Shown: piece by piece, positions 1 through 59,885 of the stretch
Layout: each line of letters starts with the position of its first letter
How positions within the stretch are numbered: the first letter of the stretch is position 1
DNA from: Raillietiella orientalis
Lineage: Eukaryota
Length of the DNA stretch: 64,000 nucleotides
NCBI GenBank assembly: GCA_036172245.1
Contig: JAYWIR010000033.1
Span: 434,001 to 498,000, forward strand
Direction of reading: 5' to 3'
Translations under genes and position numbers: made by a program
The notes under the pieces: generated by a model
Seen by the model: the letters and a program-made list of their open reading frames with translations, nothing else
The model's database searches: none
Told to the model about the DNA's origin: nothing

Positions 1-2161
1 TCGGTCAACAGTAGCTTCGACGCAGAGAGGACGCCAATGTAACACCCAGGTACTTGGCCTTGTTTACCGTTCGGAATCCTCTCCCCGCTAGAGCAAAGAG
101 ATCGAGGATTCCAACGAGCAAGAGCTGACTTTTCTAGGCGTTGATATTTAGACCCAGGCCTTGATCCATCAGGTCCACCACATCCAGAAACGCTCGTTGG
201 TTTCTCTCTCCCTTGATAAGGAAGAGTGGATCATCAGCGTTTGCCAGATAAGTAGGACGCTGGCCATCGATTATCATGCCTTGCAATCGTCCGCACTTCT
301 ATATAAAGGACGACAACGTCTCCATATAGATAACGAACAGCATCGGACTTAGCGAATCGCCCTGTCGGACTCCTCGTTCCATCCTGATTGCTGCCGTCTT
401 CTGGCCGTTGATCTTGATCCGGCAGTACTGGTTCTGGAGTACCGCCCTCACGAATTTGCTGAAGTGTTCCGGAAGCCCTAGCTTCTCCAGAACCTTCAGC
501 AGCATCCCGTGGTCGATGGAGTCGAAGGCCTTCTCCATGTCAGTGAACACCAGCACCAGGTTCTCGCCGACGTATCCACTGAGTCCAACAGTGGCCTGGG
601 CACACTTGACATTGTCCGACATGTGTCGTCCTGGGACTGCAAATGTCTGGAACGGAGAGATCAGCCTCGACATGACCTTGCCTAAGCGGTTGGACCAGAT
701 CTTCCCCAACCACTTGGCATCGGAGTTTAGAATCGAGATTGGCCTCCATTGGGCGATCTCGGTAGAGTCGCCTCCTTTCGGCAGCAATCTCATCCGACTC
801 TCGTAGAAGGACTGAGGTAGTCTGCCTTCTTCCCGGATGCAGAGGGTCAACTGGTGGAACAAGCGCAGGTAGGCGTGCAGGTACCGCTGATAGTGCGTGA
901 TGGGTACACTGTCAGGGCCTGCTGCCACGTCCTTGCGAAGTTGCCCAAACGCAGTCTTCACCTCTTCTTCGGAGAACTCCTCCTCCAGTCTGTTCCGCTG
1001 GAGGTCGTCGGTCCTCTTCTCGAGATAGCTCAAGAAGGCCTGTTGACTAGAGCGACACAGCTGTTGTCGCCTGAAGTGTTTCGTGTAATGCCTGTGAAAG
1101 GCATCCACGATGTCCTCAGACGACTGTCGCTTTCGGCCGTCGTACTGGATGCAGAAGATATCTGTTGCCAGATTTCTCTTCTCCAGCACGCCGACTTCCC
1201 CTTTTATGTTATTGAGGACGTACCCACTCTCGTACTGATCGAAGTACTTTGAGAGGGAGCGATCTCGGATGTTCAGCTCCCGGTACGCCTCTTGCCTCGA
1301 GCGCCTATCCCCGAACTGCATGTTCGCAAACAGGTGTATCCTTTGTTTCAGGCTGTCTCAGTCGGCGACTCTTCGGATTGTTGTTGCCTTCAGAATCGTC
1401 TCCAGGACAGCCTGATTTCCGGGATGGGTTTCGAACCAGGCAGGCATGCTGATGAGCGCCGCCCTGGTGCCTTGCCTTCGCCGAGGATTGTCCGTTCTTA
1501 GGGAAAACCGCACCAGGGGGTGATCGGACACCGTGGTCATAATGTCTCGAAAACCCTGGATTCGATTCCTAAGTTCGGTGCTGTGCAGGACGTGATCGAT
1601 CGGCTTGTGACTTGCAGTTCGACACACCAGTCCGAACTCGTCGGATAACCGCCGATACGCCGTCCTTCCTCTGGCGTCTTCGGAGTGAGTGATCTCATCC
1701 AATATGTTGAGATCGCCAGCAACAATCACGACGTCCTTGGAAGCAACCTTTTCACGGAGTGCTGCATGCAGCGCCTCCGTACAACGATGTTTTAGCCTGT
1801 GCGGTCCGTACACGTTCACCAGGATGAGGTGAACAGTAGCGGACCAGGCGAGTCGCACGCCGATGATTCGTCCGGGTTGGGGTCAGAACACTTTCAGAAT
1901 AGTGGGGGCCAAGTTGTTCTTTATTAGGACCGCCACTCTCTGCGTGTTCCGTTCTCCCTCGCTGACGAAAATCTGCCCGTTGAATCGCCGTTCCATTTGC
2001 TTGCTAATCTCGAGACCCATCTTGTGGGTCTCCTGCAGGCACACTATGTCTTGTTGTGCGATGGTCCGCACAATCCTTCTTCTTTTTCCCTGGTCGACCA
2101 TACCGTTTACATTTTAGGAGGCGATGTTCAGCCTCCTGGCGGTCGATAGGGAAGAGGCCAT
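1..2161 (-). pseudogene. A1 ORF2 (APE endonuclease plus RT), disrupted
   Basis: Motifs LQETH, GDLN, IDH, SDH, WRPISILN, DMEKAFD, GVRQGDSLSP. The SWN codon has become a stop and there are frameshifts. Confidence 0.9.
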
Positions 2162-2174
2162 AAAAGGGGAAGAC

Positions 2175-3962
2175 CTATTTCTTGGCCTTCCTGAGCTTCT
2201 TCTGTCTGAGAGAGCGTGCTCTTCCAGACAATGAAGAAGCAGCGGGCTTCTCGCTGCCGGCGTCACTCTCATTTCCGGTGAGGTCGGTGACTTCCGCCTC
2301 GTCCGTCGAGTGTTCGGCCAGCTCGATCAGTTGTCGAGTTAGCGTCTCCATCTGGACCTTGGCGCAGAAGTTCGCCTTTACGTCGAGAAGCTGTTCCTCT
2401 AGCTTTTTGCGTTCAGCGACCTCCACAACCTATGTGATGTTCTCTTGTGCAGTGCAGATCTTCTGCAAGATTTTCTCTTGCTGGGGACCGCTCTGCACCT
2501 CTAGGACTATATTAGCCAGTAATAATAACTCCTCCGTAGATTGCAGGGCCTCCTGCGACGCCGGAGAGGCTAGGGCTTTTTCTTCATCCGCGCCTTCCTG
2601 CGCTACCTCCATCTTCTCGCCTTCTTGCTCTTTACCTTCCAGGATAAGAGGGGTTTCTTGCTCCTTGACGAGCATCCTTTTCTTTCCTTTCTTCCCCACC
2701 TGTATGAAGCCGTCTTCCGATACCGGGACGGCTTCTTTCACCTTCTTCGGCCTTCCTGCCTTCTGAGGCTGTTCCGCCTCCTTGGTGTTTCTCTCTCTCA
2801 CGGGAGAGAGACCTCGAATCCTTCTGCAGTTTGCAAACTCCGGACAGCTCCATTTGGCATGTCCGTGTTTCTTGCAGAAGGAGCACACCTCCGGCTGCGG
2901 GCAGTTTCGGACTTGATGTCTAATTTTGCCGTAGCGGGAACAACGACACGTTGGGCAAGCGCCGTCCCTGTGGCCGAACTGCTTGCACCCGGTGCAGAAT
3001 ATCGGCTGTTGCCGGTAACGCACGTTCACTCCTTCAGATTGTTCGTCAAGAACGGCTAATCCAGGGATCACAGCTCCCTCTTTCAACTTCATTTTGGCGA
3101 TCATGTCGCCAGAAAATATTTTTCCAGAGAAGTTCTGGAATTCAAGGTCCAGAACTTCCCCATACTGCTCCAAAAAGTTCCACACCGTTAGTTGCGGTGT
3201 GAGGATGGAGATGCCGTTCAGAATGACGGTTGTGTATGGCATCTCGCCAACACCACAAACCATCCTCCCTTGTATATTGATCCCCTTCTGGATCAATAGC
3301 TCTCTAATCTCTTCACAGCCTGTGAAGACTGTGAACCCGTTGTTTGCTGGCATGATCGCCTGTATGCGATCAAAATTCATGTCCGTTTTATCGAGGGACA
3401 GATACACCTCCCTGATATTATTGAATTTGATTAGCCCAGTCTTGAAAATGATGGGCTTTACATTCGGCCCTAACTCCACGATCGGTCGATCCACCTTTTG
3501 GACTTTACCGCATAGCGGCTTCCCGAAATTTCTTGGTAGGTGGACACTCGCTTGTCCAGCCGCCACCGACGCATAGGAAAAGGGCTGCGCCGCCGCAGCC
3601 GAACAAGATGGCGTCTCGCCCTGAACCGCGTGGACGCCCGCGGGTCCTGCCTGGGACGCCGCCGCTCCGAGCGCAACCCTCGACGTCGCCACCTTTGCCG
3701 CCGCGGGCGGCACCCTCGGCATCGCCGCCGCAGGCGCGACCTTCCCCGCCGCGGGCACGATCCTCGGCGTCGCCGCCGCGGGCACGACCTCCGCCGTCGT
3801 CGCCGCGGGCACGACCCTTGGCATCGCCGCCGCCGGCGCAGCAAAGCCCGCCGCGGGCGCGAACCTCGGCATGCCTGCCACCGCCTCGCCGTTGCCGCAC
3901 GTTACCTCCATGGCTTCCATGGGGGACGACGGTCTCTCCACTCCTCTTCTAGGTGCCTGCAT
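2175..3962 (-). pseudogene. A1 ORF1, gag-like nucleic-acid-binding protein with a premature TAG
   Basis: CX2CX4HX4C knuckles (CTGCKQFGHRDGAC, CSFCKKHGHAKWSC). Colinear with the intact A2/A3 ORF1. Confidence 0.9.
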
Positions 3963-4129
3963 CCTGGCAGCTGGTCTTGCTGCACGGGACCACTGCAGGT
4001 CTTCCGCCGCGATCTCCTCGGAGCTTCTTTTCTAGTTTCGTTTGGAAAACTTCGCCTCTCCGGGCACACACGAGCACAATGAACTGATTAAGTTGTCAAG
4101 TGCACAATACTTCGAGCCGCGGAGCAAGT

Positions 4130-4145
4130 TCACCGACTCGGCAGG
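4130..4145 (+). repeat. Family A TSD TCACCGACTCGGCAGG between A1 and A2
   Basis: Identical 16-mer at 9769 and 15404; variants at 47329, 52894 and 61230. Confidence 0.9.
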
Positions 4146-4279
4146 GTTCCCCAAGTCCCACAAGGGGTGGGGTAAGTTTATTTTTCTATAAAAATACAAA
4201 ATTTACATTCGCACTCTCATTCACTCAATACAAACATTTTGCACTTGAGGGTCCTTGGGTTGCACTAGAGTTCTGCTTT

Positions 4280-7200
4280 TCAGGAGGGAATTCCAGCTGG
4301 TTGGTCCCGGGCGTCGTCCTGGATCCTCTTCAGGATGAATCGGTACGTCCAGGCGTGGATCTTCCCGCAGTTCCTGATGCCGATTTCCCTCTTCAAGAGC
4401 CCTTGTAGGATCTCCATCGGTGGTGCGGCTCTTCTGGCTTTCCTCATTTTCCACCACCGCACAAGTATGGCGGTGATGAAGAGGGCTATGGTCGTCCTCA
4501 CCATGGGATTGTAACAGGGAACATTACCATCCCCATAAAATATCCCGGCGAGGATCTCCATAACGGACTTGTTGGTAAGTCCTATGATCCTTTTCAGGAT
4601 CAGGCAGTCATGCAGCAGTGTGGGACACGTCAAGACGTGAAGTCTCGTGTCGTCGTCTCCACATGCTGCGCAGTCTCGGTCTTCCCGTCTTCCTGTGAAG
4701 TGCTGCAATCGGGACCCACTCTGGATTCCTCCGTGATAAAACATCAGGAAGTCATCCTGGGTGCCCGGCGGAAGGTCACTCCTCCAGAGCGTCGTGCCGA
4801 TCGCTAACAGGTTGAACCGCTCACTCCCGTAGCGTTCGGTGGCTTCCTGGAGGGCACTGGTGTCACGGTCGTTTTCTTGGATAAGCCTTCGGAGGTTTGT
4901 TCTGGTTACCCTCGACCATGCGAAGTCGTTGTGGTTGAACCACACTTCGCGGGTCCTGAGGGTAAACCTTCCTAACATCATCTCTGTATACCGAAGTATA
5001 CGTGTTTGATGTAGGTAGCCTCCTCGCCTCCACTCCTGGATTTGCAGTAGGGTAACTCTGGACCGCTGGTAGATCCAGCTTCTCGTGTCCGGCGGGACAG
5101 GAAGCACTCAAGGGATCACCAGGATGGACTCGTCCTGCCAGAGTTCCCTGCTTCGCGGCACGATCTTGATCTGGTGCTTCCGCACCAGCCGTTGCTCCCT
5201 CCTCCAGGTCGGGTCGATTGTTATCCATTCCCCTACTTTGCCTAGCAACGCAGTCATCAGGCCTTCCGAGTTGTTAAGCAACAACGCGTAGGCCCTGTGC
5301 GCCGCATACGGCCAGTCATCCCAGTAAGTGGCCATGTCCAGGATGTGTCGCGTATCCATGATTTCCATGGAATGTGCAAGCGACTTCATCCCGGAACCGC
5401 CTAATTCCCTGGGACGACACAGGGGTTTCAGTCTTACTCTTGGACGATAGTGGCCCCAGAGTGTTTTTCTTTGCAGCTTGTCGAACTCCCTAGTAGTGTC
5501 CTTGTTCATCCTCGCGGAGGCCGCCCCGAAGAGCACTCTCGGAAGGAGTACTCCGTTCCATATTGTTGCCTTTCGCTTCATCCCAAGGTCCGTTCGGGTG
5601 TACTTGGCTGCTTCCTTCGCCGTTTTCCCCAGGATTTCTTTCCACAGCAGCTTCGACGCAGAGCCGTCGCCGATGTAGACTCCCAGGTACTTGGCCGTGT
5701 CCACCGTACGGAATCCACTACCCGTTAGAGTGGAGAGATCCAGGATTCCGACGGGCAAAAGCTGGCTCTCTGGGAATTGATTTTTAAGCCCAAGCCCTGT
5801 TCCATCTGGTCCACCACATCCAGAAACGCACGCTGATTTTTCTCTCCCTTGATGAAGAAGAGTAGATCATCGGCGTATGCCAGATGGGTAAGACGCTGGC
5901 TATCGATGGTAATCCCGCTTATTCGTCCGCTCTTCTCGATAAAGGACGACAACGCCTTCATATAGATAACGAACAGCATCGGACTTAGCGAGTCCCCCTG
6001 TCGGACTCCTCGTTCCATCCTGATTGCTGCCGTCTCCTGGCCGTTGATCTTGATTTGGCAGTACTGGTTCTGGAGTACCGCACTCACGAAGTTGCTGAAG
6101 TGTTCCGGAAGCCCTAGCTTCTCCAGAACCTTCAGCAGCATCCCATGGTCGATGGAGTCGAAGGCCTTCTCCATGTCAGTGGACACCAGCACCAGGTTCT
6201 CGCCGACGTATCGACTTAGTCCAACAGTGGCCTGGGCACACTTGACATTGTCCGACATGTGTCGTCCTGGGACTGCACATGTCTGGACCGGAGAGATCAG
6301 CCTCGACATGACCTTGCCTAAGCGGTTGGACCAGATCTTCGCCAACCACTTGGCAACGGAGTTTAGAATCGAGATTGGCCTCCATTGGGCGATCTGGGTA
6401 GAGTCGCCTCCTTTCGGCAGCAATCTCATCGGACTCTCGTAGAAGGACTGAGGTAGTCTGCCTTCTTCCCGGATGCAGAGTGTCAACTGGTGGAACAAGC
6501 GCAGGTAGGCGTGCAGGTACCGCTGATAGTGCGTGATGGGTACACTGTCAGGGCCCGCTGCCACGTCCTTGCGAAGTTGCCCAAACGCAGTCTTCACCTC
6601 TTCTTCGGAGAACTCCTCCTCCAGTCTGTTCCGCTGGAGGTCGTCGGTCCTCTTCTCGAGATAGCTCAAGAAGGCCTGTTGACTAGAGCGACACAGCTGT
6701 TGTCGCCTGAAGTGTTTCGTGTAATGCCTGTGAAAGGCATCCACGATGTCCTCAGACGACTGTCGCTTTTGGCCGTAGTACTGGATGCAGAAGATATCGG
6801 TTGCCAGATTTCTCTTCTCCAGCACGCCGACTTCCCCTTTTAGGTTATTGAGGACGTACCGACTCTCGTACTGATCGAAGTACTTTGAGAGGGAGCGATC
6901 TTGGATGTTCAGCTCCCGGTACGCCTCTTGCCTCAAGCACCTATCCCCGAACTGCATGTTCGCAAACAGGTGTATCCTGTGTTTCAGGCTGTCCCAGTCG
7001 GCGACTCTTCGTATTCTTGTTGCCCTCAGAATCGCCTCCAGGACAGCCTGATGTCCGGGATGGGTTTCGAACCAGGCGGGCATGCTGATGAGCGCCGCCC
7101 TGGTGCCTTGCCTCCGTCGAGGATTCTCCGTTCTTAAGGAAAACCGCACCAGGGGGTGATCGGACACCGTAGTCATAGTGTCGCGAAACCCCTGGATGCG

Positions 7201-7797
7201 GTTCCCAAGTTCGGTGCTGTGCAGGACGTGATCGATTGGCTTCTGGCTTGCTGTTCGCCAGACCAGTCCGAACTCCTCGGATAGCCGTCGATACGCCGTA
7301 TTTCCTCTGGCGTCTTCCGAATGAATGATCTCATCCAAGATGTTGAGATCGCCAGCAACTATCACGACGTCCTTAGATGCGACCTTTTGCCGGAGTGTTG
7401 CATGCAGAGCCTCCGCACAACGATGTTTTAGCCTGTGCGGCCCGTACACGTTCAACAGGATAAGGTGAACAGTCGCGGACCAGGCCAGTCGCACGCCGAT
7501 GATTCGTCCGGGTTGGGGACAGAACACTTCCAGAATAGTGGGGGCTAAGTGGTTCTTTATTAGCACCGCCACACCCTTCGTGTTCCGTTCTCCTTCGTTG
7601 ACGAACATCTGCCCGTTGAATCGTCGTTCCATTCGCTGGCTTATCTCCAGACCCATCCTGTGGGTCTCCTGCAGGCACACGATGTCTTGTTGTGCGATGG
7701 TCCGCACAATCCTTCTTCTTTTTCCCTGGTCGACCACACCGTTTACGTTCCAGGAGGCGATGTTTATCCTCCTGGCGGTCGATAGGGAAGAGGCCAT
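4280..7797 (-). pseudogene. A2 ORF2 (APE-RT-zinc finger), nearly intact
   Basis: SWNVNG, LQETH, GDLN, SDH, HLAYADD, KYLGVYI, CAAC..RLHVLTC across three ORF pieces. Confidence 0.95.
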
Positions 7798-7810
7798 AAA
7801 AGGGGGAGAC

Positions 7811-9598
7811 CTATTTCTTGGCCTTCCTGAGTCTCTTTTGTCTGAGAGAACGTGCTCTTCCAGACAATGAAGAAGCAGCGGGCTTCTCGCTGCCGGCGTC
7901 ACTCTCCGTACCTGTGAGGTCGATAATTTCCGCCTCCTCCGTAGAGTGTTCCGCCTGCGCGATCAATTTTCGAGATAGCGCCTCTATTTCGACCTTGGCG
8001 GAGAAGTTCGTTTTCACCTCGAGAAGCTGTTCCTCTAACTTCTCGCGTTCAGCGACCTCCACCACCTGGTTGATGTTCTCTTGTGCAGTGCAGATCTTCT
8101 GCAAGATTTTCTCTTGCTGAGGACCGCTCTGCACCTCCATGATCTCCTCCGCCAGTGTTGCCAACTCCTCCGTAGTCTGCAGAGCTTCCTGCGACACTTT
8201 AGTGGCTTCCTGTCTCTCTTCCTTCGCGGCTTCCTGCGCTACCTCCATCTTCTCGCCTTCCTGCTCTGGTGCTTCCAGGATTTGAAGAGATCCTTGCTCC
8301 TTGACGAGCATATTCCTCTTTCCCTTCTTTCCCACTTCTATGAAGCCGTCCGCCGACACCGGGACGGCTTTTTTCACTTTTTTCTGCCTTCCTGCCTTCT
8401 GAGGCTGCTCGGCCTCCTTGATGTTTCTCTCTCTCACGGGAGAGAGACCTCGAATCCTTCTGCAGTTTTCAAACTCCGGACAGCTACATTTCGCATGTCC
8501 GTGTTTCTTGCAGAAGGAGCACACCTCCGGCTGCGGGCAGTTTCGGACTTGATGTCCTACTTTGCCGCAGCGGAAACAACGACACGTTGGGCAAGAGCCG
8601 ACCCTGTGACCGAACTGCTTGCACCCGGTGCAGAATACCGGTTGTTGCCGGTAACGCACATTCACTCCCTGGGATTGTTCGTCAATAACGGCCAATCCAG
8701 GGATCACCGCTCCCTCCCTCAACTTCATCTTGGCGATCATGTCGCCAGAAAATATGTTTCCAGAGAAGTTCTGGAAATCAAGGTCCAGAACTTTCCCAAA
8801 CTGCTCCAAGTAATTCCACACCGCTATTTGCGGTGTGAGGATGGAGATGCCGTTTAAAAAGACGGTTGTGTATGGCATCTCGCCAATACCACAAACCATC
8901 CGTCCTTGTATATTGATCCCCTTCTGGATCAATCGCTCTCTAATGTTTTCACAGTCTGTAAAGACTGTGAACCCGTTGTTCGATGGAATGATCGCCTGAA
9001 TGCGATCAAAGTCTATGTCCGTCTTGTCGAGGGACAAAATGACCTCCCTGATGTTATTAAATTTTATTAGCCCCGTCTTGAAGATAATGAGCTTCACGTT
9101 GGGGCCTATTTCCACTATTGGTCGGTCCACTTTTAGTACTTTTCCGCTAAGCGGCTTACCGAATTTCCTAGTTGGGTGGACACTCGCCTGTCCAGCCGCC
9201 ACCGACGCATAAGAAAAGGGCTGCGACGCCGCAGCCGAACAAGATGACGTCGCTCCCTGCACCGCGTGGACGCCCGCGGGTCCCGCCTGGGACGCCACCG
9301 CCGCGGGCGCAAACCTCGACGTTGCCGCGGTTACCGCCGCGGGGGGCACCATCGGCATCGCCGCCGCAGGCGCGACCTTCCCCGCCGCGGGCACGATCCT
9401 CGGCGTCGCCGCCGCGGGCGCGCCCTCCGCCGTCGTCGCCGCGGGCACGACCCTTGGCATCGCCGCCGCCGGCGCAGCAAAGCCCGCCGCGGGCGCGATC
9501 CTCGGCATGCCTGCCACCGCCTCGCCGTTGCCGCACGTTACCTCCGTGGCTTCCATGGGGGACGACGGTCTCTCCACTCCTCTTCTAGGTGCCTGCAT
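7811..9598 (-). CDS. A2 ORF1p, 595 aa: Ala/Pro repeat, putative RRM-like region, three CCHC knuckles, Glu/Lys-rich C-terminus
   Basis: Open from MQAPRRG to KAKK*; same length as A3 ORF1. Confidence 0.9.
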   Translation of the reverse strand: MQAPRRGVERPSSPMEATEVTCGNGEAVAGMPRIAPAAGFAAPAAAMPRVVPAATTAEGAPAAATPRIVPAAGKVAPAAAMPMVPPAAVTAATSRFAPAAVASQAGPAGVHAVQGATSSCSAAASQPFSYASVAAGQASVHPTRKFGKPLSGKVLKVDRPIVEIGPNVKLIIFKTGLIKFNNIREVILSLDKTDIDFDRIQAIIPSNNGFTVFTDCENIRERLIQKGINIQGRMVCGIGEMPYTTVFLNGISILTPQIAVWNYLEQFGKVLDLDFQNFSGNIFSGDMIAKMKLREGAVIPGLAVIDEQSQGVNVRYRQQPVFCTGCKQFGHRVGSCPTCRCFRCGKVGHQVRNCPQPEVCSFCKKHGHAKCSCPEFENCRRIRGLSPVRERNIKEAEQPQKAGRQKKVKKAVPVSADGFIEVGKKGKRNMLVKEQGSLQILEAPEQEGEKMEVAQEAAKEERQEATKVSQEALQTTEELATLAEEIMEVQSGPQQEKILQKICTAQENINQVVEVAEREKLEEQLLEVKTNFSAKVEIEALSRKLIAQAEHSTEEAEIIDLTGTESDAGSEKPAASSLSGRARSLRQKRLRKAKK

Positions 9599-9768
9599 CC
9601 TGGCAGCTGGTCTTGCTGCACGGGACCACTGCAGGTCTTTTGCCGCGATCTCCTCGCCGCTTCTTTTTTTTTTGTTTCTTCTGGAAAACTTCCCCTCTCC
9701 GGGCACACACGAGCACAATGAACTGATTAAGTTGTCAAGCGCACAATACTTCGAGCCGCGGAGCAAGT

Positions 9769-9784
9769 TCACCGACTCGGCAGG
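9769..9784 (+). repeat. Family A TSD between A2 and A3
   Basis: TCACCGACTCGGCAGG. Confidence 0.9.
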
Positions 9785-9872
9785 TTTCCCCAAGTCCCAC
9801 AAGGGGTGGGGTAATTTTATTTTTCTATAAAAATACAAAATTTACATTCGCACTCTCATTCACTCAATACAA

Positions 9873-12800
9873 TTATTTTGCACTTGGGGGTCCTTGGGTT
9901 GCACTAGAGTTCTGCTTTTCAGGGGGAATTCCAGCTGGATGGTCCCGGGCGTCGTCCTGGATCCTCTTCAGGATGAATCGGTACGTCCAGGCGTGGATCT
10001 TCCCGCAGTTCCTGATGCCGATTTCCCTCTTCAAGAGCCCTTGTAGGATCTCCATCGGTGGTGCGGCTCTTCTGGCTTTCCTCATTTTCCACCACCGCAC
10101 AAGTATGGCGGTGATGAAGAGGGCTATGGTCGTCCTCACCATGGGATTGTAACAGGGAACATTACCATCCCCATGAAACATCCCGGCGAGGATCTCCATA
10201 ACGGACTTGTTGGTAAGTCCTATGATCCTTTTCAGGATCAGCCAGTCATGCAGGAGTGTGGGACACGTCAAGACGTGAAGTCTCGTGTCGTCGTCTCCAC
10301 ATGCTGCGCAGTCTCGGTCTTCCCGTCTTCCTGTAAAGTGCTGCAATCGGGACCCACTCTGGATTCCTCCGTGATAAAACATCAGGAGGTCATCCTGGGT
10401 GCCCGGCGGAAGGTCACTCCTCCAGAGCGTCGTGCCGATCGCTAACAAATTGAACTGTTCACTCCCGTAGCGTTCGGTGGCTTCCTGGAGGGCACTGGTG
10501 TCACGGTCGTTTTGTTGGATAAGCCTTTGGAGGTGTGTTCTGGTTACCCTCGACCATGCGAAGTCGTTGTGGTTGAACCACACTTCGCGGGTCCTGTGGG
10601 TAAACCTTCCTAACATCATCTCTGTATACCGAAGTATACGTGTTTGATGTAGGTAGCCTCCTCGCCTCCACTCCTGGATTTGCAGTAGGGTAACTCTGGA
10701 CCGCTGGTAGATCCAGTTTCTCGTGTCCGGCGGGACAGGAAGCAACCAAGGGATCACCAGGATGGACTCGTCCTGCCAGAGTTCCCTGCTTCGCGGCACG
10801 ATCTTGATTTGGTGCTTCCGCACCAGCCGTTGCTTCCTCGTCCAGGTGGGGTCGATTTTGTTCCATTTGCCTGCTCGGCCTAGCAGCGCAGTCATCAGGC
10901 CTTTCGAGTTGTTAAGCAACAACGCGTAGGCCCTGTGCGCCGCATACGGCCAGTCATCCCAGTAAGTGGCAATGTCCAGGATGTGTCGCGTATCCATGAT
11001 TTCCATGGAATGTGCAAGCGACTTCATCCCGGAACCGCCTTCTTCCCTGGGACGACACAGGGGTTTCAGTCTTACTCTTGGGCGATAGTGGCCCCAGAGT
11101 GTTTTTCTTTGCAGCTTGTCGAACTCCCTAGTAGTGTCCTTGTTCATCCTCGCGAAGGCCGCCCCGAAGAGCACTTTCGGAAGGAGTACTCCGTTCCATA
11201 TGTTGGCCTTTCGCTTCATCCCAAGGTCCGTTCGGGTGTACTTGGCTGCTTCCTTCGCCGTTTTCCCCAGGATTTCTTTCCACAGCAGCTTCGACGCAGA
11301 GCCGTCGCCGATGTAGACTCCCAGGTACTTGGCCGTGTCCACCGTACGGAATCCACTACCCGTTAGAGTGGAGAGATCCAGGATTCCGACGGGCAAAAGC
11401 TGGCTCTTCTGGGAATTGATTTTTAAGCCCAAGCCCTGTTCCATCTGGTCCACCACATCCAGAAACGCACGCTGATTTTTCTCTCCCTTGATGAAGAAGA
11501 GTAGATCATCGGCGTATGCCAGATGGGTAAGACGCTGGCTATCAATGGTAATCCCGCTTAGTCGTTCGCTCTTCTCGATAAAGGACGACAACGCCTCCAT
11601 ATAGATGACGAACAGCATCGGACTTAGCGAGTCGCCCTGTCGGACTCCTCGTTCCATCCTGATTGCTGCCGTGTCCTGGCCGTTGATCTTGATCCGGCAG
11701 TACTGGTTCTGGAGTACCGCCCTCACGAAGTTGCTGAAGTGTTCCGGAAGCCCTAGCTTCTCCAGAACCTTCAGCAGCATCCCATGGTCGATGGAGTCGA
11801 AGGCCTTCTCCATGTCAGTGAACACCAGCACCAGGTTCTCGCCGACGTATCGACTGAGTCCAACAGTGGCCTGGGCACACTTGACATTGTCCGACATGTA
11901 ACGTCAAGGGACTGCACACGTTTGGACCGGAGAGATCAGCCTCGACATGACCTTGCCTGAGCGGTTGGACCAGATCTTCGCCAACCACTTGGCATCCGAG
12001 TTCAGGATCGAGAATGGCCTTTATTGCGCGACCTGCGTGAGGTCGCCTCCTTTTGGCAACAATCTCATCCGACTCTCGTAGAAGGACTGTGGAAGTCTTC
12101 CTTCTTCACGGATGCAGAGGGTCAACTGGTGGAACAAACGCAGGTAGGCATGCAAGTACCGCTGATAGTGAGTGATGGGTACGTTGTCAGGGCCCGCTGC
12201 CACGTCCTTGCGTAGTTGACCAGACGCAGTCTTCACCTCGTCTTCGGAGAATTCCTCCTCCAGTCTGTTCCGCTGGAGATCGTCGGTCCTCTTCTCGAGG
12301 TAGCTCAGAAAGGCCTGTTGACTAGAGCGACACAGCTGTTGCCGCCTGAAGTGTTTCGTGTAATGCCTGTGAAAGGCATCCACGATGTCCTCAGACGACT
12401 GTCGCTTTTGGCCGTCGTACTGGATGCAGAAGATATCTGTTGCCAGATTTCTCTTCTCCAGCACGCCGACTTCCCCTTTTATGTTATTGAGGACGTACCG
12501 ACTCTCGTACTGATCGGAGTACTTTGAGAGGGAGCGATCTTGGATGTTCAGCTCCCGGTACGCCTCTTGCCTCAAGCGCCTATCCCCGAACTGCATGTTC
12601 GCAAACAGGTGTATCCTGTGTTTCAGGCTGTCCCAGTCGGCGACTCTTCCGATTGTTGTTGCCCTCAGAATCGCCTCCAGGACAGCCTGATGTCCGGGAT
12701 GGGTTTCGAACCAGGCGGGCATGCTGATGAGCGCCGCCCTGGTGCCTTGCCTTCGCCGAGGATTCTCCGTTCTTAAGGAAAACCGCACCAGGGGGTGATC

Positions 12801-13435
12801 GGACACCGTAGTCATAGTGTCGCGAAACCCCTGAATGCGGTTCCCAAGTTCGGTGCTGTGCAGGACGTGATCGATTGGCTTGTGGCTTGCTGTTCGCCAG
12901 ACCAGTCCGAACTCCTCGGATAGCCGTCGATACGCCGTCCTTCCTCTGGCGTCTTCCGAATGAATGATCTCATCCAAGATGTTGAGATCGCCAGCAACTA
13001 TCACGACGTCCTTAGGGGCGACCTTTGCCGGAGTGTTGCATGCAGCGCCTCCGCACAACGATGTTTTAGCCTGTGCGGCCCGTACACGTTCACCAGGATA
13101 AGGTGAACAGTCGCGGACCAGGCCAGTCGCACGCCGATGATTCGTCCGGGTTGGGGACAGAACACTTCCAGAATAGTGGGGGCTAAGTTGTTCTTTATTA
13201 GCACCGCCACACCCTTCGTGTTCCGTTCTCCTTCGTTGACGAACATCTGCCCGGTGAATCGCCGTTCTATTCGCTGGCTTATCTCGAGACCCATCCTGTG
13301 GGTCTCCTGCAGGCACACGATGTCTTGTTGTGCGATGGTCCGCACAATCCTTCTTCTTTTTCCCTGGTCGACCACACCGTTTACGTTCCAGGAGGCGATG
13401 TTTATCCTCCTGGCGGTCGATGGGGAAGAGGCCAT
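9873..13435 (-). pseudogene. A3 ORF2 (APE-RT-zinc finger, about 1190 codons), two lesions
   Basis: Pieces 13001-13435, 12021-13020 and 9873-12020; YADD present. Confidence 0.95.
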
Positions 13436-13448
13436 AAAAGGGGAAGAC

Positions 13449-15236
13449 CTATTTTTTGGCCTTCCTGAGCTTCTTCTGTCTGAGAGAGCGTGCTCTTCCA
13501 GACAATGAAGAAGCAGCGGGCTTCTCGCTGCCGGCGTCACTCTCCGTACCTGTGAGGTCGGTTACTTCCGCCTCCTCCGTAGAGTGTTCCGCCTGCGCGA
13601 TCAATTTTCGAGATAGCGCCTCTATCTCGACCTTGGCGCAGAAGTTCGCCTTCACGTCGAGAAGCTGTTCCTCTAACTTCTCGCGTTCAGCGACCTTCAC
13701 CACCTGGTTGATGTTGTCTTGTGCAGTGCAGATCTTCTGCAAGATTTTCTCTTGCTGAGGACCGCTCTGCACCTCCATGATCTCCTCCGCCAGTGTTGCC
13801 AACTCCTCCGTAGTCTGCAGAGCCTCCTGCGACACTTTAGTGGCTTCCTGTCTCTCTTCCTTCGCGCCTTCCTGCGCTACCTCCATCTTCTCGCCTTCCT
13901 GCTCTGCTGCTTCCAGGATTTGAGGAGTTCCTTGCTCCTTGACGAGCATCCTCCTCTTTCCCTTCTTTCCCACTTCTATGAAGCCGTCCGCCGACACCGG
14001 GACAGCTTCTTTCACTTTTTTCTGCCTTCCTGCCTTCTGAGGCTGTTCGGCCTCCTTGATGTTTCTCTCTCTTACGGGAGAGAGACCTCGAATCCTTCTG
14101 CAGTTTTCAAACTCCGGACAGCTCCATTTCGCATGTCCGTGTTTCTTGCAGAAGGAGCACACCTCCGGATGCGGGCAGTTTCGGACTTGATGTCCTACTT
14201 TGCCGCAGCGGAAACAACGACACGTTGGGCAAGAGCCGGCCCTGTGACCGAACTGCTTGCACCCGGTGCAGAATACCGGTTGTTGCCGGTAACACACATT
14301 CACTCCCTGGGATTGTTCGTCAATAACGGCCAATCCAGGGATCACCGCTCCCTCCCTCAACTTCATCTTGGCGATCATGTCGCCAGAAAATATGTTTCCA
14401 GAGAAGTTCTGGAAATCAAGGTCCAGAACTTCCCCAAACTGCTCCAAGTAATTCCACACCGCTAGTTGCGGTGTGAGGATGGAGATGCCGTTTAAAAAGA
14501 CGGTTGTGTATGGCATCTCGCCAATACCACAAACCATACGTCCTTGTATATTGATCCCCTTCTGGATCAATCGCTCTCTAATGTTTTCACAGTCTGTAAA
14601 GACTGTGAACCCGTTGTTTGATGGAATGATCGCCTGAATGCGATCAAAGTCTATGTCCGTCTTGTCGAGGGACAAATAGACCTCCCTGATGTTATTAAAT
14701 TTTATTAGCCTTGTCTTGAAGATAATGGGCTTCACGTTGGGGGCTATTTCCACTATTGGTCGGTCCACTTTTAGTACTTTTCCGCTAAGCGGCTTACCGA
14801 ATTTCCTAGGTGGGTGGACACTCGCCTGTCCAGCCGCCACCGACGCAAAAGAAAAGGGCTGCGACGCCGCAGCCGAACAAGATGGCGTCGCTCCCTGCAC
14901 CGCGTGGACGCCCGCGGGTCCCGCCTGGGACGCCACCGCCGCGGGCGCAAACCTCGACGTTGCCGCCGTTACCGCCGCGGGCGGCACCCTCGGCATCGCC
15001 GCCGCAGGCGCGACCTTCCCCGCTGCGGGCACGATCCTCGGCGTCGCCGCCGCGAGCACGACCTCCGCCGTCGTCGCCGCGGGCACGACCCTTGGCATCG
15101 CCGCCGCCGGCGCAGCAAAGCCCGCCGCGGGCGCGATCCTCGGCATGCCTGCCACCGCCTCGCCGTTGCCGCACGTTACCTCCATGGCTTCCATGGGGGA
15201 CGACGGTCTCTCTACTCCTCTTCTAGGTGCCTGCAT
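13449..15236 (-). CDS. A3 ORF1p, 595 aa, gag-like with three CCHC knuckles
   Basis: Intact ORF with CTGCKQFGHRAGSC, CFRCGKVGHQVRNC and CSFCKKHGHAKWSC. Confidence 0.92.
   Translation of the reverse strand: MQAPRRGVERPSSPMEAMEVTCGNGEAVAGMPRIAPAAGFAAPAAAMPRVVPAATTAEVVLAAATPRIVPAAGKVAPAAAMPRVPPAAVTAATSRFAPAAVASQAGPAGVHAVQGATPSCSAAASQPFSFASVAAGQASVHPPRKFGKPLSGKVLKVDRPIVEIAPNVKPIIFKTRLIKFNNIREVYLSLDKTDIDFDRIQAIIPSNNGFTVFTDCENIRERLIQKGINIQGRMVCGIGEMPYTTVFLNGISILTPQLAVWNYLEQFGEVLDLDFQNFSGNIFSGDMIAKMKLREGAVIPGLAVIDEQSQGVNVCYRQQPVFCTGCKQFGHRAGSCPTCRCFRCGKVGHQVRNCPHPEVCSFCKKHGHAKWSCPEFENCRRIRGLSPVRERNIKEAEQPQKAGRQKKVKEAVPVSADGFIEVGKKGKRRMLVKEQGTPQILEAAEQEGEKMEVAQEGAKEERQEATKVSQEALQTTEELATLAEEIMEVQSGPQQEKILQKICTAQDNINQVVKVAEREKLEEQLLDVKANFCAKVEIEALSRKLIAQAEHSTEEAEVTDLTGTESDAGSEKPAASSLSGRARSLRQKKLRKAKK
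14935..15150 (-). repeat. Coding minisatellite in A ORF1, unit like PAAA(M/T)PR(V/I)VPAA
   Basis: GC-rich imperfect repeats, also at about 3660-3875, 9297-9510 and, with fewer units, 52535-52690. Confidence 0.8.
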
Positions 15237-15403
15237 CCTGGCAGCTGGTCTTGCTGCACGGGACCACTGCAGGTCTTCCGCCGCGATCTCCTCGGAGCTT
15301 CTTTTCTAGTTTCGTTTGGAAAACTTCGCCTCTCCGGGCACACACGAGCACAATGAACTGATTAAGTTGTCAAGCGCACAATACTTCGAGCCGCGGAGCA
15401 AGT

Positions 15404-15419
15404 TCACCGACTCGGCAGG
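15404..15419 (+). repeat. Family A TSD at the A3/C1 junction
   Basis: TCACCGACTCGGCAGG reads on into C ORF1 (SPTRQERSDLPTVKK). Confidence 0.9.
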
Positions 15420-16077
15420 AGCGGAGCGATCTGCCGACTGTCAAGAAGGTGAATCCGTTGCCGTTTTTTAAAGGCGTAGCGAAAGCAACGCCCCCAGAGA
15501 ACGCAGCGAAAATCCCGGAGGTTTCCGCAACTACTGTCGCGAAAGCCTCCGAAAATCGCGAACGCGAATGGAAGGTTGTGGAGAGGAGGGAAGAAAAATC
15601 TCCAAAAAAAGCTCCGCAACCTCCATCCCTGAGCACTTCCGAAGGAAGAAGCAGTCGCGGGAATACGAAAACACGCGCGGCTTGTGACTCTTCCAAGGAA
15701 AAAGCCAGCGCCTTCAACGCGTGCAAGTCCGTTTCTGTGACCGCCGAGAAGACCATTCCGGTGCAATCGGACGGATGCAAGCGCACGTCGATCGTGCGAG
15801 CGTCAGACTCCGCAATGGAGTCTGATAACGCAGCTGAACGACGCGTTACTCGCGCGGGAGCGAGCGCCCGCCGGGCTTAAGCCCTGAGGCGTGACACACT
15901 CGCCGCGGAACGGCGAGTGCTAACCCCGGAACCCACAGGTTCTGCACCCGGGGAGGAGCACCCGATTACGTGCAGCACAGTTGAGGCCGGTGGCGACCGC
16001 GCCCTCCAGCCCGTCGTGCTGCTTACTGCCCGCTCGCCGGGTGAGGCGAGCACCACGGCCTCGCTTTCCCAGCCGTG

Positions 16078-19000
16078 TTGAGGGCAATCGCGTCTTCTCG
16101 TCGTGTTGCCGTAACGTCTTGGAACGTCAACGGGCTCCAACACGAGGAGAAGAGGCGACTAGTGGCTGACGCTCTGCGCGCCTTCGACTTGACGCTCCTG
16201 CAGGCGATTCAGAGCATCTCCGGAGAGCAGGCTGCCGAAATCGAACGGCGCGCGGGCGGAACGCTACTTTATAGGTGCAGCGTTGCACGTACGTGCGGCG
16301 TCGCTTTCCTCGTGCGAGGAACTTTGGCGGGAGCGGTGCGCAGCGTTCGTTTCGACACGGAAGGCCGAGTGGGACAGCTTGTACTCAAGTGGTCCGACTC
16401 GATCGACCTTGTCGTAACCAACGTGTACGCGCCGAGCGGTGCTGGACGATGGACCGAAAGGATTGAGTTCTTCGGTACCCTTCAAAGCCAGTGGCTCACT
16501 CGATCTCACCCTACTGTGGCCCATCTCATTGCGGGGACTTTAACGTCCACCTGCTTTCCGAGAATAGATCCCACATAAGGGAAAAGTTGCTAGCGGAAGA
16601 GATGTGCGCGTACGTGCACGCGTGCAACTTGTTCTCTAGCGACCCTGTTATGGCAGCAACGCCGGACCACGTATACCTTGATGAACACTTCCTCTGTCGA
16701 GTGGGTCGGAGAGGTCCCGTGCCGTCCGTGCTTTCAGACCACAACAGGCTCGAGTTCGAGTTGCTCCCGCCAGGCAAGGGGCCTCCAAACTGATTTTGGA
16801 GGATGCCGGCAGACTGGCTAAGCCACCCGGAGGCGGCTGAGCATCTTCGCCAGTACCTCCTCGGCTTTGCCATAAGTGAGCTCGAGGACTGGGACGATCT
16901 GAAAAGATCGGTCCGCGAGTTCTGCTGCCTGTTTCCCTTGCACCAGCTTCCGCGCGGCTTCGGAGAGGGCGTAGCCAACAGCAGAGATTTTCTGCAGGCC
17001 CGCTCCTTTTCCAGGCGCGCGGACGTTGGTCGATTATCCGAGTACAAGGCCAAGGCCGAGCGCCAGGTCTGGCAGTCAGGGGCGATAGTTCTGCTTGACG
17101 ACCAGGACCGGGAATGCTCGGCCTTAGCCGACGTGCGACGGATAGTCAGGCGCTATTACTCTTCTCTGTATGCAGAGGCACCGACGGAACGCAGCCTCTC
17201 CCGGCTGCTTCTGCCGATTGATGCACCTGTTGTAGACGAGGAGGAACGCGCGCGTCTTGATGAGCCCTTCACGGCAGAGGAAATTTCCTCGGCAATCTCG
17301 GGGCTCAAGAGACGTAAAGCGCCAGGCGAAGATGGGCTCCCCGCGGAATTCTTTCAGTGTTTTGCGGCGGAGCTCATCCCCCTGGTGCTCCAACTCTCGT
17401 CGCTGATGCGAGACTCGGGCAATGTCCCCGCCTCGTTTCGCTCAGCGAAGGTGCGTCTACTGCCGAAAGGCGGAGATTTGCGCCAACTGAACAACTGGCG
17501 TCCGATCACATTAGTGAATTCGGACTTCAAGTTGTTCTCGAAACTTTGGGTGGCGCGGATTGGTAGGATCGCGGAATCCTTGGTAAGTCCGGAGCAGACG
17601 TACGCTTTTCCTAGGCGGTCCATGGACGCGAATCTCTTGTTCATCCGCACATGGCTGCAATTGCAGCATCGTGTGGCGGTGGATCGTCGTGCGGAAGCGA
17701 CGCCTTCGATCTCTCACCGACGGAGGCGCAAGACGCAAAGGGAGACACCGGGAGCCTTGGCGGTTGCAGTCGATCTGCACAAAGCTTTCGATTACGCGAA
17801 CCAAAAGCTTCTTCTTGAGCTTTTGGAACGTCTGGGTCTTCCGGCATCCCTGTTGGTGTACTTGCGCTCCTGCTGTCGCCACGCGATTACATTCATTGTT
17901 TTCAGTGGCTGTCGCGTGTATAGCGTGCCGGTACGACGAGGAATTAGGCAGGGTGCTAGCTAAAGCCCGCTGCTCTTCAGCATCTATATTGAATTGGTAC
18001 TGGAGGCTTACAGGCTGACGCTAGCCAATCTGCCGAGCTCCTGTCCAGGTACGCCGGCCGTGGCAGCCTGTGCCGACGACGTGCTTCTCCTGTTGCTTAT
18101 GTCCACCCCGGCGACATCGCTTGAAGACTTCTTTGAGTTGATTCGTCGCGGTGCGGGCGTGAGCGTTAACAGGAGTAAGTGTATGGTTGTTCCGGTGGGT
18201 GCGACGTGGGAGGGGCAGTCCGACTGGATCGACCTGGGGATCCCCACGGGCAGGTACCTCAGGTACCTTGGCGTGCCGTTGGGCGACTTCTGCATCTCAG
18301 AAGCGTGGTCGGACTGCCTTCGGAAGGCAGAGCGTGTACTTGGCCCGTTTTCAGGAAACCAGTTCGTCTTGCCGGAACGGGCCTGCATCTGGAACACCTC
18401 CGTTGCTCCCCTTCTCCGCCTCCTGTTTTTTGTTTGTCCCCCCCACTTCAGGAAGTCAAAGTCTGGGCGCAGCGCCTTCTACGCCAAGCGTTGTGGTGCG
18501 CTGCAAGATCCCGGGTTAGACTTAAAGAGTTGGTGGCGCCGCGTCAGGATGCAGGCTTGGGCATCCTCGACTTAAGCAGCATCGAACTGCAGGTGCAGTT
18601 TTGCATGCTGCTTCTCTGTGCCAAGCTGTGGTGTACGCCGTGTTGCTTATACGCACGCCTTATACTGAGGCGCTGCACGGGAAGCGAGGCACTGCTTTCG
18701 TTGCTACTTCACTTTCGGCACACCAGAATAGGGTTTGGCTTCCCGCTGAGGCAGCTGTCCTCACTGCTGGAAGCCCAAAGTTGGATCTCCTGCCGCCCCA
18801 TGAACATTAGTGCATGGAGGCAGGAATCCTTTTCATCGTGGGCAGCTTCCGAAGGAACGCGCCCGGAAGATTTTCGACGCCTGCGACTTCTCCTCAGTCA
18901 TCCAATGGACGAAGTCATGCAGGACAAGAAGTTGTCGGATCGTCTGGCCGCCACACCACTCGCCGCAGTGTTGTCTGCCCTCAGGGCAAGCAACGACGGT

Positions 19001-19651
19001 TCCCTACCGGCGGAATGGCAGTTCTCCTGCAAAATAGCGGAAGTCAGTAAGCTCCTCGGCAGCTGGACGACAAAGGAGCTGGTGCAAGCCGTCTCACCTC
19101 GGAATCGGGCGAAGGGACTGCTTCGGTGGAGCGAACATTTAAGTGTGCCCCCCGGAGAGATAGTGGTTCCTTCCGTTTGTTTGGACAGCTCCGTGTTCTT
19201 CATTAAGTGGAAACAAGATGTGCTGCTCTTTTTACATTGTGCATTTCACTGAAATAGGCAGCGAAGCATCGTTTCCGGGGGAGCTGCTTTGCCAAACTGT
19301 TTAAGGTGCGGAGAGATCGAGTCTTTTCCGCACCTTTTGCTGGACTGCGGTGACCTCCGGAAACTGTGGCGAAGGCTCACTTCGGCCATAATGCCACAAG
19401 GAGGCACTGCCATTGATGTGCTGCGGCGCTTCTTCAGCAGAAATGGACTTTCGGTTGGCGCGATTGTCGCAACCATGTGTTGCGTTCCCGCCATCGTGAA
19501 GGCCCGCTACGCCCTAGAGATGTCAAAGCAGCGAAGGCAGGCTCACCTGCTTACAGTTCAATTCATGGAGAAGGCTTCAAGGTGGTCTCATCTTCGTGAC
19601 AAGGTGAATAAGCACATCACCGGCATACATCGCCGGTTTACACACCTTTGA
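16078..19651 (+). pseudogene. C1 ORF2 (APE-RT-zinc finger) with stops and frameshifts
   Basis: Pieces 16075-16578, 16491-16793, 16803-17963, 17994-18575, to 19252, and 19289-19651. Confidence 0.92.
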
Positions 19652-20004
19652 GAACTTCGTAATCCGGTGACCCCTGCGACCTCTCGCCCACCCATACCTT
19701 GTCCCCGTTCGCTCGGTAAAATTTCCGGTGCCCATGCTTTTATCCCCGTGTCTTCCAGAGCGATCCCAAAGACCCTTATCCCGTCCTCCTTATTCATTGT
19801 TTTTATTTTATTTTGGTTTCTTTGTGTTCTTCGCCATCCCACACCGTTCACAAAACTGTTACTCTGGCCTGCGTGCCAGCAATATTCTCTTCATTCTTGT
19901 TCAGTCGTCGGTTGGGAGTTTGGTTCATAACTGGTTTATTTTGTATAATTGCTTTTTTTCGTTATGTTATATGGAATAAACGCCCCGGCGTGACCGGTTG
20001 AGAA

Positions 20005-21892: not shown

Positions 21893-21908
21893 CGCTCCGG
21901 AATCTCCA
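21893..21908 (+). repeat. Family B TSD CGCTCCGGAATCTCCA between B1 and B2
   Basis: Repeated at 27438-27453, where it reads into D ORF2 (TLRNLQDWDLFK). The left limit is uncertain by a few nt. Confidence 0.8.
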
Positions 21909-21938
21909 TTGAAACCCGGGTGCGCCGGGACGTTTATT
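21909..21938 (-). terminator. 3'-terminal signal of B2: AATAAA, 3 nt, CCCGG-cgcac-CCGGG hairpin, tttcaa; no poly(A)
   Basis: The same architecture occurs at the intact 3' ends of the other families. Confidence 0.7.
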
Positions 21939-25712: not shown

Positions 25713-25714
25713 TA
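25710..25714 (-). promoter_or_regulatory. TAATG overlapping ORF1 stop / ORF2 start (translational coupling)
   Basis: Also at 20166-20170, 36997-37001 and 56002-56006; TAATA in E at 31334-31338. Confidence 0.8.
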
Positions 25715-45300: not shown

Positions 45301-45986
45301 ACCGACCGCTTGAAGCGGTCTCAATCCTGGAGTGTATGCAGCCTGAAGCTCTGTAGGAACGTGCGGAGAGGTTTCACCGCTTCCGGGAGGTTCAGTCTGT
45401 CCCCTGGGAGACGCCACGCTGACGACGAAGGGCCCCTGTCGCGCGGATGGATCTCGAGAACTATCGGGCGATGGTCGGACAGCTCGCACGGTAACTTGCC
45501 GCGCCTGCCCACGCGAGGGCACAGGTGCTCGTCAAGAAACACGTGGTCAATGCTGTCTTCCATCCCCGCGGCACTGGCCAACAAAATACAGGTGTGCACC
45601 GCCATGTACACCTCTTTGAACAGGTCACGCTCGGGATTCTGCCCATCTGGTTTAAGGCGAACGTTGAAATCCCCTGCAACCAGATGGGCATTCCGCACGT
45701 CTGCTCCGGTCAGCCAGTTGCGCCGGAGGGCGAGAAAAAATTCTTTTCTCGCCCTCCTGTTCATAAGGTCCGCGCAACTCGTTGCGTACACGTTCGTGAC
45801 GATTAGAAACATCGAGTTGTACCACCTGAGAGTCAGGTGGCCGACGCGACCGGCATTATCAAACTGTACGTCCTTTATTGGGGCCTCGATGGCTTGCGGG
45901 AGCAGGAAGGCGATACCGATTGATTTCGTGGTGCCACAGTGCCACAGCAGCCGTACTCTTGCGATCCGTTTGATCTCCCGCGCTCG
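42337..45986 (-). mobile_element. Family B' copy B4, 3' portion (most of ORF2 plus 3' UTR)
   Basis: GDFN, IDH, SDH (45321-45812), RKAFD..AYADD (44130-44447), CVRC..LPHLLVD (42555-43301). Confidence 0.9.
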
Positions 45987-59845: not shown

Positions 59846-59885
59846 ATAGCCGCCATACAGAGATTCGTTCGATCTAGTGCGCTCG
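59846..59885 (-). mobile_element. 40-bp island of B-type APE coding sequence between the F and C3 insertions
   Basis: atagccgccatacagagattcgttcgatctagtgcgctcg aligns without gaps to B3 36810-36849 atagccgccctccggagatccgttcgatctcttgcgcttg. Confidence 0.8.

Follow-up and report, generated by a model that had tools for sequence, protein, structure and literature searches.

A probable sequence-specific L1-like retrotransposon arrayed head to tail at a 16-bp site in the ORF1 of another LINE

Research on site-specific long interspersed nuclear elements (LINEs) treats them both as natural tools for inserting DNA at a chosen place and as models for the survival of a mobile element that does its host no harm. 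In the 28S genes of Drosophila, tandem copies of the LINE R1 at its normal site are separated by the 14-bp target-site duplication (TSD); according to the portion of the R1 study cited here (PMC2718515), they arise when a new element enters the TSD that borders a resident R1 at its 5′ end. The relevant passages of McGurk and Barbash (2018, PMC5932611) describe how two insertions at one site give rise to a dimer with a TSD between its units, which unequal exchange can then expand. Specific sites inside other mobile elements are used by LINEs of the Tx1 clade, which is known from animals: in the sections cited from Kojima (2015, PMC4494074), Tx1 inserts in the piggyBac-type element Tx1D, Tx1-Mar families insert in Mariner-N4_AMi, and Tx1-8_Crp and Tx1-4_AMi insert in long terminal repeat (LTR) retrotransposons. 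Here we analyze one 64,000-nt stretch of the Raillietiella orientalis genome (assembly GCA_036172245.1, contig JAYWIR010000033.1, positions 434,001 to 498,000; hereafter the window), in which copies of a LINE that we call A stand head to tail, separated by a 16-bp sequence, beside a second LINE that we call C. The window holds five copies of A and three of C, and our statements on site specificity apply within it.

We consider it probable that A is a sequence-specific, L1-like LINE with an APE-type endonuclease, that its target is the 16-mer TCACCGACTCGGCAGG in the C-terminal tail of the first open reading frame (ORF1) of C, which it enters in antisense orientation, and that the array grew by re-insertion. 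What is new here is the A family and its target, a LINE ORF1; the mechanism and the array-forming behavior are known. With its fixed 16-bp site and clean 16-bp duplication, the array is a readable record of successive hits in their order, and A offers a defined substrate for testing the requirements that an L1-like APE endonuclease has for recognizing a long site.

The array and its 16-bp target

A preliminary description of this locus, made from the sequence alone, had reported three exact copies of the 16-mer, beginning at 4130, 9769 and 15404 with periods of 5639 and 5635; both the positions (plus strand, Table 1) and the spacings match what we find. When up to two mismatches are allowed, the window contains five matches, the additional two lying at 47329 and 52894 with one mismatch each. 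By chance a mean of 0.05 matches is expected from shuffled sequence, and none of 100 shuffles reached five. A single 5.62-kb unit fills the gaps between the 16-mers, and we refer to the array copies as A0, A1 and A2. A1 and A2 are 96.6% identical over 5623 nt, and A0 and A2 are 91.0% identical over 4126 nt. That the copies differ in patches, as previously remarked, is seen in 200-column windows, in which identity ranges from 0.88 to 1.00 between A1 and A2 and from 0.75 to 0.995 between A0 and A1. The units are spaced by exactly one TSD-length piece of target, with the ends of A in register on both sides. Besides the 16-mer, A shows no terminal repeats and no LTRs.

To the right of 15404 lies C, a different LINE on the plus strand, and the reading frame of its ORF1 tells us what the 16-mer is. 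In the C copy beside the array (C1, locus 1), the last 16-mer is read as SPTRQ in a frame that stays open for 159 codons, to 15880, just ahead of the APE domain, in agreement with the earlier claim that it leads into C ORF1. At the two other loci that carry A, the left flank is C-type ORF1, the kind of flank that the preliminary description foresaw to the left of the array, with an N-terminal domain common to X-type LINEs (a third group in the window, treated below) followed by CCHC knuckles. At locus 3 (C61), this knuckle-bearing frame enters the decayed target as ..SSPTWQ, with one stop, in the same codon phase as SPTRQ in C1. When the 16 nt are removed, the right flank falls into a frame that stops after 10 codons. 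Exactly one 16-mer makes C ORF1 continuous, and thus one 16-mer is C's own and the second is a TSD; this bears out the proposal that the 16-mer is the target rather than a part of the element. No Rfam family reached its gathering score anywhere in the window, so the target is no known RNA gene. The ORF1 tails of the X-type LINEs are too diverged from C to be aligned near the site, and the window contains no further 16-mer within two mismatches.

The same site is occupied wherever C occurs in the window. At locus 2, a solo copy (A47) separates the two parts of the second C copy (C47 and C52), and at locus 3 a truncated copy (A61) interrupts C61. All three C copies carry A, antisense, at ORF1 codons SPTRQ, and the four visible 3′ ends of A (4146, 9785, 47345 and 61247) all follow the 16-mer or a version of it with one to three mismatches. 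The 5′ ends vary: three copies are full length, A47 is 50 nt shorter than the array copies (starting at sense column 50) and still abuts a 16-mer, and A61 is truncated by ~3.4 kb. A constant 3′ junction combined with varying 5′ ends is the signature of target-primed reverse transcription. These junctions suggest that, within the window, A has struck one nucleotide, in one orientation, in three C copies, and they sustain the earlier view that the site was used repeatedly. The 16 bp are present once on each side of the solo copy and once between array copies, as expected from the preliminary description, in which the TSD regenerates the target for renewed hits. The two target copies around A47 differ from each other at 2 of 16 positions, and the C61 target differs at 3. 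The 3′ end of A61 lies at the common site; its 5′ end is joined to C ~600 bp downstream of the target (63436-63440) with 1-3 nt of microhomology, which reflects either a loss of target sequence at insertion or a deletion afterwards.

The core of the target, CCGACTCGG (4133-4141), is a 9-bp palindrome with a C at its center. It is intact at the three array 16-mers and at 47329, and substitutions break it at 52894 and 61231.

In the mechanism that we propose, the A endonuclease would nick the plus strand of the window just after ..GGCAGG, and the freed 3′ OH would prime reverse transcription of an A RNA that lacks poly(A) and terminates in AATAAAC, a hairpin and GAA(C/A). Because A is antisense, the first-strand cDNA would be the window plus strand, with the plus-strand end after ..GGCAGG as its primer. 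A second-strand cut 16 nt to the left, followed by fill-in, would then duplicate the 16 bp. The site copy at the 5′ side of A (right) would consist of the 16-mer and native C sequence across the first-nick position and would still be a full target; the copy at the 3′ side would run into A itself. New copies would enter beside the right flank of C and shift the older ones to the left, producing the order 16-A-16-A-16. The target copy at 15404 appears to keep the native first-nick context and would be the entry point for new A copies.

Table 1. Coordinates of A and C copies, target copies and other features in the window
Feature	Position	Strand	Remarks
A0, cut by window edge	1..4129	-	ORF1, APE, most of reverse transcriptase (RT)
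Target copy between A0 5′ end and A1 3′ end	4130..4145	+	Exact match, junction alignment
A1, full length	4146..9768	-	5623 nt
3′ end with common design	4146-4182	-	
Predicted A1 3′-terminal hairpin	4149..4172	-	Between AATAAAC and terminal GAAC; z -2.1 for the 70-nt 3′ end
A1 ORF2, open part with APE and RT	5728..7962	-	Stop-to-stop; PF03372, PF00078
Target copy between A1 5′ end and A2 3′ end	9769..9784	+	Exact match, junction alignment
A2, full length	9785..15403	-	5619 nt
A2 ORF1	13449..15236	-	593 codons stop-free, then stop codon; Ala/Pro-rich N-terminal repeats; CCHC (PF00098)
Target copy between A2 5′ end and native C1 ORF1	15404..15419	+	Reads SPTRQ in open C1 frame
C1, target site to 3′ end	15404..20003	+	ORF1 tail to 15880; APE 16045-16578; RT 16794-18572; ends ..GAGAA
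3′ end with common design	19975-20003	+	
3′ end with common design	21900-21938	-	
3′ end with common design	30423-30460	+	
C47, 5′ part of second C copy, left of A47	45985..47344	+	5′ untranslated region; ORF1, frameshift-decayed
Left target copy of solo insertion, TCGCCGACTCGGCAGG	47329..47344	+	1 mismatch (TCGCC..)
A47, solo, old, heavily decayed	47345..52893	-	Many stops; about 85.2-85.8% identity to A2
Right target copy of solo insertion, TCACCGACTAGGCAGG	52894..52909	+	1 mismatch (..CTAGG..)
C52, rest of second C copy	52894..55840	+	88.6% and 89.3% identity to C1
3′ end with common design	55811-55840	+	
C61, 5′ part of third C copy	59874..61246	+	CCHC ORF1 frame enters decayed target TCACCGACTTGGCAAT (61231-61246)
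A61, 5′-truncated, last 2.2 kb only	61247..63438	-	80.0% identity to A2; starts at sense column 3431
C61 continued, APE region, cut by window edge	63439..64000	+	90.1% identity to C1 16022-16567

Origin of the array and of the copies at other loci

The coding sequences of the array copies carry a record of how they diverged. Between A0 and A1/A2, synonymous divergence is 12-22% and the ratio of nonsynonymous to synonymous divergence (dN/dS) is 0.23-0.35, with P from 6e-8 to 8e-16 in the long ORF1 and ORF2a segments. At codons where A1 and A2 agree and are unlike the state common to A0 and A47, 82 differences are synonymous and 43 nonsynonymous, compared with a neutral expectation of ~1:3.3. 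Divergence of this kind, under purifying selection, indicates that A0 and A1/A2 derive from different active lineages that entered one C copy separately. The claim that the array is not one recent duplication is upheld on the same grounds. In four-taxon site patterns, 171 sites join A1 with A2, 16 join A0 with A1 and 16 join A0 with A2. Of the 16 sites that join A0 with A1, 15 fall in columns 1800-2600, and some patches place A0 nearer to A47; mosaic patches in the array come either from recombinant source elements or from gene conversion.

A1 and A2 are closer to each other. One ORF2 patch between them has a dN/dS of 0.21 (P 4.5e-11); elsewhere they differ by 2-4%, and dN/dS is 0.57 (P 0.07) and 0.71 (P 0.34), not significantly below 1. 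Together, we take the visible array to have been built by at least two, probably three, separate insertions. Unequal exchange may also have enlarged or trimmed it, and it may extend to the left of window base 1.

Changes private to one copy bear on the order of entry. Counted as synonymous/nonsynonymous, they number 73/155 in A47, 22/57 in A0 (with 4 stops), 6/20 in A1 and 16/17 in A2. Over all sites, A0 has 110 private changes, A1 has 47 and A2 has 42, of which 20 lie in a single patch. This A2 patch is imported, and much of the 16/17 count falls within it. Private changes that are near-neutral in A0 and A1 and that rise leftward would fit growth at the 5′-side copy of the site, which, given the small numbers, we regard as supporting evidence and not proof. 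On this evidence, the array copy that entered first would be A0, whose lineage differs from that of A1 and A2.

An alternative to re-insertion is that A inserted once with a 16-bp TSD, after which unequal exchange, sister-chromatid or homologous, amplified the unit of A plus 16-mer, and the copies then diverged through mutation and gene conversion. Such exchange yields an identical 16-A-16-A-16 layout, and in the text cited from PMC5932611 it is accepted for the expansion of a D. melanogaster R1 double insertion with 33-nt spacers. It would also suit the one full-length 5′ end that the three array copies have in common, as well as the 96.6% identity of A1 and A2, whose differences outside one patch are nearly neutral. 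As an account of the array, however, we find it unlikely. Neutral decay after duplication would give synonymous and nonsynonymous changes at ~1:3.3, in contrast to the observed 82 and 43 and to the low dN/dS between A0 and A1/A2 at a synonymous divergence of 12-22%. In patches, A0 is nearer to the solo copy at another locus than to its own array neighbors, and the first exchange event would need to have fallen within 16 bp of homology.

A second alternative questions whether the shared site says anything about specificity: A could have entered an ancestral C once, with the C::A composite subsequently copied by segmental duplication or by retrotransposition of C RNA. Divergence at loci 1 and 2 is similar for the two elements (85.8% identity between A2 and A47, 88.6-89.3% between C1 and C52), and signs of segmental duplication do occur in the window (36836-38964 and 55841-57995 are 83% identical across an element junction). 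However, the X-type flanks just outside C at loci 1 and 2 come from different X subfamilies and are 67.4% identical, compared with 89.3% for C, and a single segmental duplication therefore cannot have given rise to both. Between A47 and A1/A2, dN/dS is 0.29-0.36 (for A47 versus A2, P 6e-15 in ORF2a and 2e-12 in ORF2b). A value of ~0.3 indicates that these copies diverged as active elements, and such purifying selection on the A ORFs is unexpected for passive antisense passengers in C. Furthermore, C is 90.1% identical between loci 1 and 3 and A only 79.7%, and the 5′ junction of A is different at each of the three loci. We regard copying of a composite as very improbable.

Still harder to credit is that the 16-mer is a terminal sequence of A itself and that the array formed by head-to-tail joining, through template jumping of the RT, read-through dimers or rolling-circle copying. 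Every complete A unit in the window does have a 16-mer, and no empty C site shows the 16-mer alone. Nonetheless, there are n + 1 16-mers for n complete array elements, the solo A47 is flanked on both sides and adjoins a 16-mer despite its shortened 5′ end, and C ORF1 is in frame only when one 16-mer is counted as C's own. In addition, the 16-mers beside the decayed C47 and C61 have their own substitutions. Least probable of all is an assembly artefact, with reads of dispersed A insertions in different C copies mis-joined into a tandem layout: 5.6-kb repeats at 91-97% identity are hard to assemble, but unit differences of 3-9% are enough for long reads to separate, the junctions are clean and in register, a single-copy form of the structure exists at 47329-52909, and the window has no sign of a chimeric join and no N.

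Several points weigh against repeated, site-specific insertion of A as we have set it out. The step between A1 and A2 is explained equally well by unequal exchange duplicating one copy and by a third insertion. Ectopic gene conversion, which in principle could import selected differences, may account for the mosaic patches. The age gradient is drawn from few changes and a four-sequence reference, and A61 is without a second 16-mer. All three C copies in the window are occupied, with no C copy free of A among them. Finally, the nick positions and the endonuclease specificity are what we infer, and the evidence base is a single 64-kb window with its five A and three C copies.

Anatomy of A and the LINEs around it

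Encoded on the minus strand, A is a non-LTR retrotransposon of 5.62 kb, with an ORF1 that has CCHC knuckles and an ORF2 that has an APE endonuclease and an RT. In A1, ORF1 is open, and ORF2 is open across APE and RT and beyond them is broken into 3 pieces. In A2, ORF1 is intact and ORF2 is broken within the APE domain and ahead of the RT. The open part of A1 ORF2 matches PF03372 (E 5.6e-17) and PF00078 (E 7.2e-31), and a C-x2-C..H..C motif can be read from the translation downstream of the RT. The 5′ part of ORF1 contains tandem repeats with periods of 27, 48 and 75 nt (3687-3872, 9352-9508, 14935-15146 and 52545-52684), which encode Ala/Pro-rich ..PR(I/V)xPAA.. and whose arrangement varies among copies.

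The closest solved relative of A ORF2 in a PDB search is human L1 ORF2p (E 1.2e-47); R2 proteins score lower, at E 3.5e-25, and for the APE domain of A the search matched L1 endonuclease chains (E about 1e-5). An R1 endonuclease chain exists in the PDB; among the 20 PDB hits for A ORF2, none is a chain named R1 endonuclease. Searched against a collection of 5.8 billion proteins, A ORF2 gave 32 hits with identities of 23-28%, none of them close (best 28%), the best named hit being a frog protein at 26% identity. PF13966 occurs on 9 of the 12 best database relatives and is undetected in A itself at E<=0.01. A protein atlas returned only generic APE+RT clusters. With an ORF2 nearest to L1-type proteins, a CCHC ORF1 and a Cys-rich motif following the RT, A would fall within the L1/Tx1 group; its clade may be L1, Tx1 or another. 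Exact searches of metagenome contigs found 0 loci with a 22-nt pattern from the A 3′ end and 0 loci with a 31-nt pattern common to C1 and C52 right of the target.

At its 3′ terminus, A reads ..AATAAAC, followed by a predicted hairpin and GAA(C/A), without poly(A). A common design is seen in A, C, X and plus-strand X-like copies, all of which have AATAAAC, a GC-rich hairpin and GAA/CAA, again with no poly(A) (Table 1). This suggests that the reverse transcriptases of these elements share a mode of 3′-end recognition. The outer stem of the A hairpin is CUUCA/UGAAG in A47 and CCCCA/UGGGG in A1, and it is lost in A61, a comparison of 4 sequences that lends the hairpin weak support.

Two of the C copies have been altered beyond the insertion of A. 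C47 has the ORF1 N-domain and CCHC knuckles and is 73.7% identical to 59862-61230. C52 has an internal 1656-bp deletion, equivalent to C1 15842-17497 (junction 53329/53330), which takes out the end of ORF1, the APE domain and the beginning of the RT region.

C is in turn nested in another LINE. A single position in the APE-coding region of X-type LINEs on the minus strand holds its two visible 5′ junctions (45984/45985 and ~59873/59874) and likewise its two visible 3′ junctions (20003/20004 and 55840/55841). Insertion of C duplicates ~5 bp, ATCTC, and the site is empty in two X copies that carry no interruption, near 25558 and at 36836-36858. From these junctions, C itself looks site-specific. 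Locus 2 is a three-level nest in which X (42396-45984, 55841 to ~57700) contains C (45985-47344, 52894-55840), which contains A47. It is quite possible, though we stop short of calling it probable, that A in C in X is a three-tier chain of site-specific LINEs, each tier landing only in coding sequence of the tier below. Such a chain would be transposon-on-transposon parasitism. If it were true genome-wide, A would be a hyperparasite that disables every C it meets, and the families would be in a parasite-on-parasite arms race that can be read from nested insertions.

The first ~25 nt of C (45985-46010, 59874-59900) resemble X just downstream of the C site (36841-36880); the resemblance may be fortuitous or may stem from target sequence acquired long ago by 5′ transduction. 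To the left of the C61 site, at 59800-59873, a plus-strand X-like 3′ end (..AACAAACGCC..GTTACAA) adjoins a 25-nt remnant of the X-type APE region; two different LINEs thus entered within ~25 bp of each other. The two similar stretches at 36836-38964 and 55841-57995 have in common a junction at which the 5′ part of an X element on the minus strand meets a 5′-truncated X-like element on the plus strand. A junction common to two places implies that segmental duplication also shaped the region in part.

The entire window (1-64000) consists of LINE sequence, nested and head to tail, with a GC content of 52-61%, and no host gene was recognized in it. Long plus-strand frames lie antisense to the ORF1 of X and A (25406-26851, 20065-21258, 8039-8854 and 13677-14462) and have no Pfam hit; they most likely arise from sense-ORF composition and are not genes. 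The first of these (482 aa) was considered as the ORF1 of an additional element, "D", and rejected, as it is antisense to the CCHC ORF1 of a minus-strand X and has no Pfam match.

Comparison with described systems

Like A, the R1 elements of the arrays described by Stage and Eickbush (2009) are, in the portion of that work used here, site-specific APE-type LINEs that stand head to tail with a spacer of TSD length (14 bp in R1, 16 bp in A). The cause proposed there is the one that we favor, entry into the TSD at the 5′ end of the resident copy, and the age gradient of A fits that direction. Tandem stacking of A is consequently not new and repeats the description of R1. The two differ in their targets: R1 uses an rRNA gene, whereas A enters the ORF1 coding sequence of another LINE, antisense. 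In the limited test provided by solved structures, A is nearer to L1 than to any other solved protein, and we do not claim that it belongs to the R1 clade.

Our argument also parallels that of McGurk and Barbash, who, in the passages cited (PMC5932611), infer separate insertions from distinct 5′ truncations and from the sequences of the units, as we do here. Their cases, as far as these passages describe them, mostly involve weak site preference and rare polymorphisms; for A, the preference is apparently absolute in the window and the units come from diverged lineages. Human LINE-1 ORF2p (PDB 8sxt, 8c8j and others) resembles A in having APE followed by RT, with the best score over the RT and its flanks. 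Where L1 has a poly(A) tail and chooses its targets loosely, A carries a 3′ hairpin without poly(A) and uses one fixed 16-bp site.

In the landing habit itself, A is most readily set beside the Tx1 clade, whose LINEs, in the sections of the literature cited above, are L1-like, bear an APE domain and land at a specific sequence inside other multicopy mobile elements. Word searches restricted to open-access text turned up no description of a LINE that specifically targets another LINE's ORF1. As a haven, a LINE ORF1 would lengthen the list of known targets, which includes rRNA and small nuclear RNA genes, microsatellites, telomeres, DNA transposons and LTR elements. The Tx1-clade families named in the cited part of PMC4494074 include none with a LINE as target, unlike A, which targets a LINE ORF1. 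Also unlike the Tx1-clade cases, the target LINE of A, C, itself lies at a fixed site in a third LINE.

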